IMG/VR virus record: IMGVR_UViG_3300011335_000014
Coordinates: 1 to 30,001 of that record
Length of the DNA: 30,001 bases
Strand: one strand, 5' to 3'
Source of the DNA: a virus
Lineage: Duplodnaviria > Caudoviricetes
The notes under the pieces were generated by a model. The model made no database searches. It saw nothing but the letters and a program-made list of their open reading frames with translations, and was not told where the DNA came from. Of this stretch, positions 27,222-30,001 are shown piece by piece. The stretch's first letter is position 1, and the number at the start of each line of letters is the position of its first letter. The position numbers and the translations under genes were made by a program.

Positions 27222-27394
27222 TTCATGCCTTTAAGAGTCTGAGCCAGACGCGCACGCTGCCCCATCTTACCGGGTTTTTTTGCAGCGGCGGCTAGCTTCT
27301 TTGCAGGAATCGGTTCACCTTTTTTAGCACCAAGGGCAGAGCGCAAAGCTCCGGGCTTCTTAATTGCGTCTTTAATCCAGTTCTTGGTAGCCAT
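27218..27394 (-). CDS. Small, very basic hypothetical protein (58 aa), not in the supplied ORF track
   Basis: My translation: MATKNWIKDAIKKPGALRSALGAKKGEPIPAKKLAAAAKKPGKMGQRARLAQTLKGMK*. TAATG and ATGA overlaps on both sides. Confidence 0.8.
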   Translation of the reverse strand: MATKNWIKDAIKKPGALRSALGAKKGEPIPAKKLAAAAKKPGKMGQRARLAQTLKGMK

Positions 27395-27627
27395 TATCTA
27401 TACCCTGCCGTTTTCTTTGCAATCGTTTTGGGTTGCGCTACGAATTGTTTTCCGGCTTTTTTGCCAGCACGTTTCGCACGCGTTGTCGCAGCGTACTCAG
27501 CAGGGCTGAGAGCTTTGATCGCAGCTTCTGGAAGATAGCGCTCGCCTGTTTTGCTAGACGGTTTTCCACTTTTGGTTCTCCATTTCTGGTCGCCCCAATC
27601 CTTCAAGGATTTCTGTGGCGCTTTCAA
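27394..27627 (-). CDS. Small basic protein (77 aa) resembling the C-terminal half of DUF5872-type proteins
   Basis: QKSLKDW..QKWRTKSG..GERYLPEAAIKALSPAEYAAT. The TTG start overlaps the upstream TGA (TTGA). Confidence 0.65.
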   Translation of the reverse strand: MKAPQKSLKDWGDQKWRTKSGKPSSKTGERYLPEAAIKALSPAEYAATTRAKRAGKKAGKQFVAQPKTIAKKTAGYR

Positions 27628-27899
27628 TCTCGGTAACCCCCGCCTGCCGCCTTGTACTTCTTGGCAACAAGCTGAGCTTTACGAGCCGACCACTGACCTG
27701 CACCCGTACCTTGCGTAGCTGCGGCCTTTACTTGGGACACAATCTTCTTGCGAAGACTAGGCTTTGTGTAATTGCCAGCCGCATTTACTTTACCGCCTTC
27801 AGCATATTGCGTAAAGTCAGTGTCGTCCCGCCGGGCTTTCTTGACGCCCTTGGGCATTTTAGAGGGGGCAATGTCCCCCATACCACGGCTGGCCATCAT
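27624..27899 (-). CDS. Small basic protein (91 aa): leader + YAEGG + region resembling the N-terminal half of DUF5872-type proteins
   Basis: NYTKPSLRKKI..GQWSARKAQLVAKKYKAAGGGY. Confidence 0.7.
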   Translation of the reverse strand: MMASRGMGDIAPSKMPKGVKKARRDDTDFTQYAEGGKVNAAGNYTKPSLRKKIVSQVKAAATQGTGAGQWSARKAQLVAKKYKAAGGGYRD

Positions 27900-27902
27900 G
27901 GT

Positions 27903-28319
27903 TTAGCAGGCTTTGCCGCCCTTGTTCATGGCGATCATCTTGCCTTTGGTCTTGCCTTTTTCAGCAATACCGTCACGGCTAGGGGCGGCTGTTTTAACTT
28001 TGCCCATTGCCATACCGCCACCAGCCATTTTGCTAGTGCCTTTTTTCTTAGCCATCATTGCCATCATGCCTGCGTTCATCTTGGAAGCCATAGTATCACC
28101 ACCTTCTTTAAAAAAAGTCATTTTACCGTGCTCGGTTTTAGACTTATTCACCTTCTGAACATCTGGACGAGTTGCCCCGCCAGAACCAAATTTTTTACCT
28201 TTATCCGCGTCAGTAAAATTTTTCCCAACGCTTTGGGGTATTCCAACCTTCTTGGCAAATGCGGGGCTATTTGCAATCGCTGCCATGAAGTTGTGTTGCT
28301 TTTTGCTTACGCTTGGCAT
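27903..28319 (-). CDS. Lys/Met/Gly-rich basic protein (138 aa) with four xxxGG motifs
   Basis: MPSVSKKQHNFMAAIA..., with FGSGG, FKEGG, MAGGG, MNKGG and DGIAEKGKTKG. TAATG coupling. Confidence 0.7.
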   Translation of the reverse strand: MPSVSKKQHNFMAAIANSPAFAKKVGIPQSVGKNFTDADKGKKFGSGGATRPDVQKVNKSKTEHGKMTFFKEGGDTMASKMNAGMMAMMAKKKGTSKMAGGGMAMGKVKTAAPSRDGIAEKGKTKGKMIAMNKGGKAC

Positions 28320-28567
28320 TACTTACCCCCTGCGTACCAGTTAATAAGCTGAACCAAACCTGCGCCTACAACACTACTAGCACCACCAACAAGCATTAAA
28401 ATCTTCCAGCCGCCTTTAGCTTCAGACAATGTTTTGTCAATAGCGGTCAGCGTTGCTTGCATGGCCTTCATGTTTTCCAACATCTTGTCCATGTCATCTT
28501 GCAAATGCTTAATGTCGGACGCATGCGTGGCCAACTCTCTAGCTGTCTGAATAGCATCGCCCGTCAT
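28319..28567 (-). CDS. Small coiled-coil protein with a C-terminal TM helix (82 aa)
   Basis: Heptad-like IKHLQDDMDKMLENMKAMQATLTAIDKTL, then hydrophobic ILMLVGGASSVVGAGLVQLI. Confidence 0.7.
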   Translation of the reverse strand: MTGDAIQTARELATHASDIKHLQDDMDKMLENMKAMQATLTAIDKTLSEAKGGWKILMLVGGASSVVGAGLVQLINWYAGGK

Positions 28568-28887
28568 ACCATCCGCCCTTTTGTCTTGCCTTTTGTAGCG
28601 CAGCCATCAGCCGCAGTTACATAGCCGCCATCCTTACAGTTCCACGCTCTCAAAGACTTATTGATCCTTGAATCCGGATCGTTGGCTGTCTTGGCAGAGG
28701 TTAGTTTTTTCTTCATGCCTTCCATACGGGCGCAAAAAGAGTCGCGGCGTTTGCCGCCCTCGGGTTGAGGGCGCTTCAGTCCCGGTTTCCCGGGGTTTGC
28801 CGCGTTGTAAGAAGCCCGTCCCTTGGCGTTCAAGCCGCCCTTCTCGGACTTCCCCTCTTTGCGTTGCCATGCTGGAGACTTAGCCAT
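28564..28887 (-). CDS. Basic phage protein (107 aa) resembling DUF6321-type proteins, with a C-terminal extension
   Basis: Likely start ATG 28887: MAKSPAWQRKEGK..GGLNAKGRASYN..RRDSFCARM.GM..DPDSRINKSLRAWNC, then KDGGYVTAADGCATKGKTKGRMV. Confidence 0.7.
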   Translation of the reverse strand: MAKSPAWQRKEGKSEKGGLNAKGRASYNAANPGKPGLKRPQPEGGKRRDSFCARMEGMKKKLTSAKTANDPDSRINKSLRAWNCKDGGYVTAADGCATKGKTKGRMV

Positions 28888-29161
28888 AGAACACCACCGC
28901 CGTTGTGGATGCCGCACAAACTGCTGAAATGTTTGTGTTACACCTTATCCCTTCTCCGGGAATTACAACGTTGATCGAGCCTGCCGCTGCGGGCGCAGTG
29001 AAAGAAAACTTGGCTGTGCCGCCCGTACCATCGTTTAAAACCACAGTGCCGCCAGATGCATAACTAATGGTCAAACCTTTAATGCGAGCAGGGCCAGCAA
29101 AAATGGTGGTAGTTGTTCCAGCAGCCGCCGATGCGGAGAGTACGTCATATTGCATAGTCAT
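28880..29161 (-). CDS. Small beta-rich hypothetical virion protein (93 aa)
   Basis: Start ATG 29161 after RBS AAGGAG. Motifs GPARIKG, IPGEGI and terminal VVFYG. Confidence 0.7.
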   Translation of the reverse strand: MTMQYDVLSASAAAGTTTTIFAGPARIKGLTISYASGGTVVLNDGTGGTAKFSFTAPAAAGSINVVIPGEGIRCNTNISAVCAASTTAVVFYG

Positions 29162-29175
29162 AATCAATCTCCTTT

Positions 29176-29195
29176 AAAAACGGGGCCGAGGCCCC
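29176..29195 (-). terminator. Intrinsic terminator after the 140-aa gene
   Basis: GGGGC-CTCG-GCCCC-GTTTTT on the minus strand, about 10 nt after the stop codon. Confidence 0.65.
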
Positions 29196-29204
29196 TTGAG
29201 TTGA

Positions 29205-29627
29205 TTAAGCAGTGCGTGTAAACACGTACGCTGTTGCGCTAGAGAACATGATGCGGAAACAAGCCAAGCCTGTTACGCCAGCGGCAATTGTTAAATCACC
29301 GAATGAACCGGGAGTGTCTGCAGCAGCAGTGGACAAAATACCGTTTGTAGCAACCGCAATGGTTACTGTGCTTGCGCCAGCGGTGTTGTCAATAAACAAG
29401 TCCAACACAGTGCCTTGAGTAGCACTCAAAGCGGCTCCCAACAGAGTGCCGGTTGGCAAAGTGATGGTTGTAGGGGCTGCTGAAGTAGAAGTAATGTAGC
29501 CTGTTGCAACTTGCGCCGCAGTAGCTGTGGCCGTTGCGTTAATTGCGTTGGTAGCGGCGGTTACTTGGTGGCCTTCAAGAAAGCCGTTTTGAGATACGAC
29601 TGGGCCGTTAAACGTGGTGCGTGCCAT
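29205..29627 (-). CDS. Probable capsid decoration/head accessory protein (140 aa)
   Basis: MARTTFNGPVVSQNGF, T/A-rich, with TITLPT. It lies immediately downstream of the major capsid gene and has its own promoter and terminator. The function is inferred from position. Confidence 0.55.
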   Translation of the reverse strand: MARTTFNGPVVSQNGFLEGHQVTAATNAINATATATAAQVATGYITSTSAAPTTITLPTGTLLGAALSATQGTVLDLFIDNTAGASTVTIAVATNGILSTAAADTPGSFGDLTIAAGVTGLACFRIMFSSATAYVFTRTA

Positions 29628-29633
29628 GATTTT

Positions 29634-29709
29634 TCCTTACATGCAAGTGAGGGTGTTCTGTCTGCATGTCGTCAGCCGGGACTGTCAGAACACCGGAAAA
29701 GCCCGGATT
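29634..29709 (-). ncRNA. Putative structured cis-regulatory 5' leader RNA (two hairpins with complementary loops)
   Basis: Three perfect interleaved helices: CCGGG/CCCGG (29706-02/29680-76), GGUGUUCUG/CAGAACACC (29694-86/29660-52) and ACAUGCA/UGCAUGU (29669-63/29645-39). The last ends directly at the SD AAGGA. Confidence 0.6.
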
Positions 29710-29715
29710 AAAAGC

Positions 29716-29744
29716 AATATACACCAAAAGAAAAAGGGGCACAA
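29716..29744 (-). promoter_or_regulatory. Putative sigma70-type promoter embedded in the capsid terminator
   Basis: TTGTGC (29744-29739), a 17-nt spacer, then TATATT (29721-29716). Predicted start near 29709. Confidence 0.55.
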
Positions 29745-29755
29745 GGCCCCTTTTC
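29726..29755 (-). terminator. Intrinsic (probably bidirectional) terminator after the major capsid gene
   Basis: GAAAAGGGGC-CTTGT-GCCCCTTTTTCTTTT. Confidence 0.85.
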
Positions 29756-29756
29756 A

Positions 29757-29776
29757 AATATTTCCGAAGAAATATT
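29757..29776 (-). other. C(UUCG)G tetraloop hairpin at the capsid stop codon
   Basis: AAUAUUUC-UUCG-GAAAUAUU, a perfect 8-bp stem. Confidence 0.65.
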
Positions 29777-30001
29777 AGGTTGAACCGGGTGAACCGAAGA
29801 CACCTAACGGGTCAGAGAAGCCAAAGCTGTAACGCTCACGGGCTTTGTAACGAACGTTGCCGGTATCAAAATCCCCGTCCATTCCAGTAGTCAAGGCCAT
29901 ACGCTCAAAGTGCTTCAGGCCGTTAGGAACGTCTGTGCACAAGAACCAAGCATTGGTGTCTGTCAGGTAGTGGTTAATTGTGTAACCTTCGGGGATTGAA
30001 C
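29775..30001 (-). CDS. Major capsid protein, C-terminal fragment (HK97 fold, Mu gpT-like); not in the ORF track
   Basis: My translation: ..SIPEGYTINHYLTDTNAWFLCTDVPNGLKHFERMALTTGMDGDFDTGNVRYKARERYSFGFSDPLGVFGSPGST*. It is followed by a strong terminator. Confidence 0.85.
   Translation of the reverse strand, partial: SIPEGYTINHYLTDTNAWFLCTDVPNGLKHFERMALTTGMDGDFDTGNVRYKARERYSFGFSDPLGVFGSPGST

Follow-up and report, generated by a model that had tools for sequence, protein, structure and literature searches.

A conserved three-way-junction RNA with two pseudoknots precedes a predicted capsid decoration gene in lake and ocean phages

The locus and its decoration gene

The window—the whole 30,001-nt stretch of phage DNA analyzed here—carries an 82-nt leader element on its minus strand, from 29709 to 29628. 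On the 5′ side lies the major capsid gene (29775..30001, minus strand), present as its 3′ end, cut by the window edge, and matching phrog_371 (major head, E 0.0013). A full-length copy of this capsid protein at a related locus (L081) matches PF25209 and PF10124 (Mu-like gpT) above cut-off, the latter with 38.5 bits. The element sits directly downstream of this Mu gpT-like head gene, the location that the Rfam family RF03012 (Mu-gpT-DE) calls for. A computed terminator-like hairpin (29731..29755, minus strand) follows the capsid gene. A second, A/U-rich hairpin on the minus strand (29756-29774) spans the capsid stop codon just before this terminator, as also seen in L001, L019, L041, and L047.

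A sigma-70-like promoter is predicted at 29716..29744 (minus strand), with a −10 box at 29721-29716 and a −35-like box at 29744-29739, and transcription is predicted to start near 29709. The sequence-only reading had already predicted a transcription start about 3 nt 5′ of the element. The boxes are placed by eye: the −35-like box matches the consensus at three of six positions, stands at a 17-nt spacer, and lies inside the terminator hairpin; a consensus scanner found no promoter in the window. On the 3′ side, the element runs into a Shine-Dalgarno sequence (29634..29639, minus strand) ahead of a gene for a 140-aa protein (29205..29627, minus strand, start at 29627). A computed terminator-like hairpin 3′ of this gene (29182..29195, minus strand) suggests a one-gene unit.

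Small basic ORFs, one of which carries DUF6321, line up on the minus strand at 27394-28917, between the decoration gene and SU10-adaptor-like genes. Among related loci, ORF insertions of 400-1650 nt concentrate in the gap from the capsid terminator to the leader, and many of these ORFs look endonuclease-like by eye (L009, L011, L024, L029, L032, L055, and others).

The downstream gene is likely a capsid cement/spike-like decoration gene, as judged from structural models. Its product combines an N-terminal arm, MAxTTFxGPV, with a swappable beta-sandwich body: the relatives share Thr-Thr-Phe-x-Gly-Pro-Val and differ beyond it, with 28 body clusters among 272 proteins. The model of the window protein (pLDDT 73.8) finds its best match in the knob of the Pa223 capsid spike (Z 8.0, rmsd 3.2, 97 aligned), which Foldseek returns as a weak match (E 0.015). 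A sister body cluster matches the KHP30, Pam1, and GP4 cement proteins (E 2e-4 for KHP30, 5e-4 for Pam1), and the DSL-LC04 record names its gene cement protein. The window body domain also ends many longer proteins. Searches of Pfam, PHROGs, and PDB sequences with the downstream protein gave nothing above threshold; the ESM Atlas returned clusters without names and pointed weakly toward families of phage fibre C-terminal beta-sandwiches. The Pa223 spike is described as a trimer whose N-terminus anchors at the capsid three-fold axes (10.1101/2025.06.11.659172), and the KHP30, Pam1, and GP4 cement proteins are likewise described as trimers (PMC9698820). By analogy, the window protein may be trimeric. 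The arm is not basic, with a mean of 1.2 Lys+Arg per 20 residues among relatives and three in all in the window protein.

Fold and covariation of the leader RNA

The three helices of 5, 9, and 7 bp that the sequence-only reading described are present on the minus strand as written and in the order it gave: 29706-29702 with 29680-29676 (5 bp, closing a 21-nt hairpin loop), 29694-29686 with 29660-29652 (9 bp), and 29669-29663 with 29645-29639 (7 bp, closing a 17-nt loop). Among 1500 shuffles of the 82 nt, one gave three disjoint Watson–Crick helices of 9, 7, and 5 bp. Nested minimum-free-energy folding gave no signal on either strand (z 0.29), as expected for a pseudoknotted RNA.

What changes is the picture that these helices form. 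Instead of two hairpins with kissing loops, the 9-bp helix is the trunk (P1) of a three-way junction at 29652..29694, identified by descriptor and covariation as the Mu-gpT-DE core. Two short stems that had been missed complete the junction: P2 (3 bp, 29684-29682 with 29675-29673) and P3 (2 bp, 29671-29670 with 29663-29662). One adenine stands at each corner (A29685, A29672, and A29661). The loops of both short arms are engaged in pseudoknots, assigned from the pairing counts of relatives: in PK1, the P2 loop (29680-29676) pairs with a 5′ strand at 29702..29706, and in PK2, the P3 loop (29669-29664) pairs with a 3′ strand at 29639..29644. The conserved PK2 comprises 6 bp, and its last base, 29639, coincides with the first Shine-Dalgarno base.

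Relatives were gathered through the capsid protein, two downstream proteins, DNA patterns, and 12 of 19 GenBank phage hits, with duplicates collapsed throughout. After 20 of 297 start candidates were left out (antisense, non-cement, or duplicate starts), 273 of 277 unique leaders were parsed. The flexible parser is permissive, with a score of 25 attained by 52 of 279 shuffled leaders; 253 of the 273 real leaders score 29-32. A strict parser accepts 262 of the 273 real leaders and 14 of 819 shuffles. Leaders built like that of the window are called long forms below.

Covariation among these relatives establishes the element as a conserved three-way RNA junction with two pseudoknots. Compensating mutations conserve the RNA in hundreds of lake and ocean phages, and all three helices first noted show such changes. 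The earlier proposal that the leader of the post-capsid gene contains a conserved RNA acting in cis is supported. The core reads P1-A-P2-A-P3-A; each helix begins with a pyrimidine and ends with a purine, each junction corner usually reads GAC, and the junction adenines are near-invariant (271, 271, and 272 of 273, where the parser demanded at least two of the three). For a MAFFT alignment, we picked 81 of 220 canonical leaders for diversity and then swapped one (L083) for the window sequence. Changes on both sides occur at 24 of 25 pairs, as high a number being reached in 0 of 500 shuffles, and none of the 500 shuffles reaches any of the five covariation measures. At the junction, the P2.1 and P3.1 pairs are each C-G in 78 leaders and U-A in 3, with none broken; the middle P2 pair occurs in four forms, again with none broken. 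The second P3 pair is Watson–Crick in only 28 of the 81, and G-A is its commonest form (175 of 273). Sheared and A-minor contacts are familiar ideas in RNA structure, and this G-A is probably a sheared pair.

Both pseudoknots stand out against cross-pairings between leaders. PK1, the P2 loop with the 5′ tail, pairs in 259 of 262 long forms vs. 339 of 2848 cross-pairings and uses 38 strand-pair types; its 5′ strand registers poorly in the MAFFT alignment (63% paired). PK2, the P3 loop with the 3′ strand, pairs in 261 of 262 long forms vs. 1082 of 3682 cross-pairings, and in some variants (L003, L314, and L336) its 3′ strand lies within a hairpin of its own, making the contact a true loop-loop pairing. 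Within P1, G-U wobbles outnumber A-C mismatches (149 vs. 10), an excess that favors an RNA of the sense strand.

A degenerate junction was considered for the class with SIWR N-termini and dropped; most members of that class keep the canonical core. A third form, of the HTVC027P type, has a 2-bp P2, a longer 5′ pseudoknot, and a P3 loop paired into the Shine-Dalgarno sequence, with compensatory changes seen by eye (L166:3281-3366, L550, L557, L566, L594, L597, L606, and L625).

The long-form model finds one copy in the 30-kb record. Cultured relatives include the Pelagibacter phages HTVC023P and HTVC027P, DSL-LC04, and the Roseobacter phages CRP-901/902. By this model, the long form is present in HTVC023P (58 bits) and DSL-LC04 (50 bits), and HTVC027P has a weak variant; CRP-902 carries a short form (72 bits on RF03012), and CRP-901 has the same leader. 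The model has no match in MinM2/Pag-Yong1, in Alcaligenes and Caulobacter phages, or in three Manatee Spring genomes. In MinM2, a Synechococcus phage, the corresponding place (L162:1593-1631) is without the junction, and a plain 8-bp stem pairs the Shine-Dalgarno sequence before a divergent MSTTLFPAPV start. By our estimate, IMG/VR holds about 24,000 stretches with the capsid patterns, about 2,000 with one long-form pattern, and about 4,300 with the short-form pattern.

Kinship with Mu-gpT-DE and linkage to the downstream gene

The sequence-only reading could assign the element to no known family. For the window form, this stands: Rfam gave eight weak matches on the window, none of them real, and no RF03012 match at E up to 10 (29300-30001), nor does RF03012 match in HTVC023P or DSL-LC04. 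At the family level it does not, as short forms at the same position score 51-72 bits on RF03012 (L071, L058, L430, L165, and L427), above the gathering threshold of 49 bits. Rfam types RF03012 as Gene; sRNA, with 53 positions. We take the source of Mu-gpT-DE to be PMC5737381, whose main text, in the part available, does not mention gpT.

The RF03012 consensus maps onto the window core, and one descriptor—outer stem, A, inner stem, AC, 7-9 nt, GA, outer stem—finds the window, the long forms, and the short forms. The long-form model finds no short forms; neither model finds the other form, and the case for kinship is therefore the core, position, and downstream gene that the two have in common. 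Both lie between a gpT-like capsid gene and a MAxTTFxGP gene and share a core of three GAC corners. The window form differs in its 9-bp P1, its added 5′ pseudoknot, and its dedicated 3′ pseudoknot strand. The short outer stem of Mu-gpT-DE, which spans about 53 nt in all, runs into the Shine-Dalgarno sequence, whereas in the window P1 ends at 29652 and the Shine-Dalgarno sequence begins at 29639. By score the window element is not an RF03012 member; it is a larger relative that likely works in the same way.

The short forms also extend what is recorded for the family. The Rfam consensus lacks P3 and any pseudoknot and stops at AUG; in the leaders collected here, the family element behaves as a 5′ leader, not as a downstream element. 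After 3 of 120 pattern matches were set aside, short forms show a P1 that holds the Shine-Dalgarno sequence and a P3 loop that pairs with the start codon and codon 2; one of 106 lacks this register. The loop base matches position 2 of codon 2 in 105 of 105 (G-C 69, C-G 36, none discordant): loop G goes with Ala codons (69) and loop C with Gly codons (36). On the best tree this Gly/Ala covariation amounts to 18 changes, but well-supported branches hold only 4 independent pairs (p 0.125). The loop-start codon pairing falls past the end of the Rfam model and does not figure among CaCoFold's new pseudoknots; CaCoFold places the family under loop and non-Watson–Crick covariations (PMC7657543 Table S1), and the ZWD structure holds 11 pairs. 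Some short forms start with UUG (L426, L445, L484, and L539); two of these, L426 and L484, have G instead of A as the loop base opposite the second U of the start codon, a wobble pair. Literature searches for Mu-gpT-DE/RF03012 returned only the CaCoFold paper (PMC7657543), and further searches gave no description of this element among the papers listed. Six supplementary files of PMC10690425 hold no match to it; the long form may figure as one of the candidates left without a name in that study.

The RNA stays with the downstream gene and not with the capsid gene. In a capsid-anchored set collected blind to the RNA, 104 of 105 loci with a recognizable downstream start carry the element (101 parsed, plus L048, L066, and L182 identified by Rfam, our own model, or eye). 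Where more than 400 nt are inserted after the capsid gene, the element stays before the decoration gene at 22 of 23 loci. On the capsid tree the two forms interchange: 16 changes between short and long are counted, and supported branches force at least three of them.

In 141 of 259 long forms, vs. 12 in shuffles, and in 65 of 104 short forms, the last base of a −10-like hexamer lies 8-9 nt ahead of the first paired base; with this spacing, transcription likely begins only a few bases from the element (about 2 nt). At the other end, the element overlaps the Shine-Dalgarno sequence or the start codon: among the 262 long forms, PK2 overlaps the first Shine-Dalgarno base in 186 and abuts it in 45, with a gap between the two in the other 31. 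Since PK2, P1, or loop pairing covers the Shine-Dalgarno sequence or the start, folding likely blocks initiation in both forms.

Residue 5 and the function of the leader

Residue 5 of the downstream protein correlates with the RNA. It is Thr in 345 of 368 element-bearing genes from three unlike N-terminal classes, in a set partly fetched with downstream-protein queries, and Thr occupies the anchor position in 34 of 34 members of the SIWR class. The element-less loci of the blind sets (L143 and L178) and MinM2 are all without Thr5. Two junction-less groups, first noticed by a scan for non-Thr starts and then resampled with residue 5 left free, show the same association. In one, the gene lies directly behind an endonuclease-like ORF, with no core within 110 nt, and none of the 76 has Thr5 (Arg in 52, His in 11, other residues in 13); Thr4, Pro9, Val10, Ser12, Asn14, Gly15, and Phe16 are kept at 71-76 of 76 under a search pattern that fixed Met, Ala, Phe6, and Gly8. 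The endonuclease stop overlaps the decoration start in 70 of the 76, and the bodies fall into 19 clusters. The endonuclease in L143 (905-1501) is GIY-YIG-like; a protein search with the endonuclease C-terminus returned only four loci. In the other group, genes behind an alternative leader RNA have Thr5 in 0 of 51 (His 29, Asn 22).

Both replacements were described in their own right. A GIY-YIG-like endonuclease gene stands in place of the leader in L143:905-1501, L178, and L671-L788, in many capsid backgrounds. The alternative leader lies about 60 nt before the start codon. It opens with a hairpin that covaries and has a UUGCAA-like loop, followed by a fixed spacer and then by a second, small hairpin in contact with the Shine-Dalgarno sequence. 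After 4 of 66 motif matches were set aside, it is represented by 51 unique copies (L789-L854; e.g., L791, L805, and L830), always with His or Asn at residue 5, and Rfam has no match at that place in six loci. One contig (L553/L554) carries two MAxTRFSGPV-type starts about 1.7 kb apart.

Several observations bear on how the correlation is to be read. Element-bearing genes use all four Thr codons, and pairing of the codon-5 region with its own leader shows no excess over pairing with other leaders (5.35 vs. 5.41). Loci without the element are spread across the tree of capsid C-termini (39 and 17 changes), and identity to the nearest canonical capsid C-terminus, compared over the last 70 residues, has medians of 94% and 98.5% in the two element-less groups vs. 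95.7% between canonical loci. Exceptions exist: canonical elements precede His, Ser, or Arg at residue 5 in 18 of 364, the third form with its 2-bp P2 precedes non-Thr genes in 35 of 36 of a biased sample, and only two of four register-shifted starts keep Thr. A single mobile cassette may lie at the origin of each element-less group, so that 0 of 76 and 0 of 51 may represent two events. Endonuclease self-immunity could explain the absence of Thr5 in the endonuclease-coupled group, and the fixed distance of residue 5 from the start codon makes a constraint at the level of the mRNA or the ribosome possible.

We lean toward the view that the element is an autoregulatory translational operator bound by the N-terminal arm of the protein whose gene it precedes. 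A translational operator or protein-binding RNA was among the options of the sequence-only reading, and the Thr5 pattern speaks for it indirectly. Free, unassembled cement protein would bind the junction through its arm and keep the 3′ pseudoknot closed over the ribosome-binding site, and its own synthesis would stop once the capsid sites are full. Transcription would presumably start beside the element, folding would repress, binding would be direct, and capsids would titrate the protein. A bolder version, tentative and in our judgment probably too specific, adds that the three-fold pseudosymmetric RNA, with its purine-A-pyrimidine corners, mimics the capsid three-fold docking site; the three arms of a trimer would each read one corner, and residue 5 would act as the specificity switch (Thr for this RNA, His or Asn for the alternative leader). 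Through such an RNA, phages of a group that ranks among the most abundant in aquatic habitats would count their capsids still lacking decoration.

Other explanations share parts of this evidence. A ligand-free structural leader, whose compact fold holds translation at a fixed rate and/or protects the 5′ end against nucleases, would account for an element that begins about 2 nt after the predicted start, has few invariant bases, and tolerates C-G to U-A swaps in its junction pairs as an architectural motif would. We regard it as unlikely: short forms pair the Shine-Dalgarno sequence and the start codon and so need a way to open, and the Thr5 pattern is left without a reason. Swappable junction pairs and an unexplained Thr5 link tell against a small-molecule or metal riboswitch, in which a ligand in the triple-A junction would stabilize the fold and shut translation. 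The multistem junction, the pseudoknots, the near-invariant adenines, and the overlap with the initiation site all suit such a device, yet the gene is structural, its body is swapped among the 28 clusters, and, among the matches listed, only the predicted decoration gene lies downstream, with no gene tied to a metabolite or ion; this reading appears quite unlikely.

Control might instead come from another phage protein, with the major capsid or scaffold protein opening the fold and switching decoration synthesis on when capsids appear. Capsid matches run at 77-100% over the last 74 residues (best 80 matches), far above the decoration body, and a gene with its own predicted promoter would need late activation. 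Near-identical capsid C-termini nevertheless occur with canonical, absent, and alternative leaders, and it is residue 5 of the decoration protein that tracks the leader, which makes this explanation very unlikely in our view. The least credible is a self-cleaving ribozyme, hammerhead-like or new, for which we see hardly any case. The compact double pseudoknot and the CUGANGA string in the window had invited the comparison. Type III hammerheads have an invariant unpaired CUGANGA, with GAAA 3′ of stem II and then stem III. The window shares the string, but there its CUG is the 3′ strand of P2, so the likeness does not hold up: the box occurs in 115 of 262 long forms, its second base, U, pairs in P2 and covaries there by swapping with A, C, or G, and what is invariant in the ribozyme is here a strand of a variable helix. 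The GAAA/stem III arrangement is missing as well: GAAA is absent directly 3′ of the would-be stem II in the window and occurs anywhere between P1 and AUG in 87 of 262. Rfam gave no ribozyme match, and cleavage within an 80-nt leader would leave the start-codon pairing unexplained.

With this analysis, the orphan Rfam motif gains a revised structure—a three-way junction with a pseudoknot onto the start codon—together with a target gene and a candidate partner, testable down to one residue. In our literature search, no virion surface protein turned up that controls its own synthesis by feedback on its leader, and the nearest comparisons come from other protein classes. The P22 scaffolding protein is likewise an assembly protein whose N-terminus is implicated in its own translational control (10.1101/2022.12.13.520362); it belongs to another protein class, and the part of that account available names no such conserved RNA fold. 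Upstream of T4 gene 32, a pseudoknot is bound by the gene's own product and regulates its translation (PMC10690425). As expected of an operator of this type, the present RNA is a structured 5′ leader that overlaps the initiation region and travels with the gene it would regulate; gp32 is a nucleic-acid-binding protein, whereas the predicted repressor here is a virion surface protein and its RNA a three-way junction.
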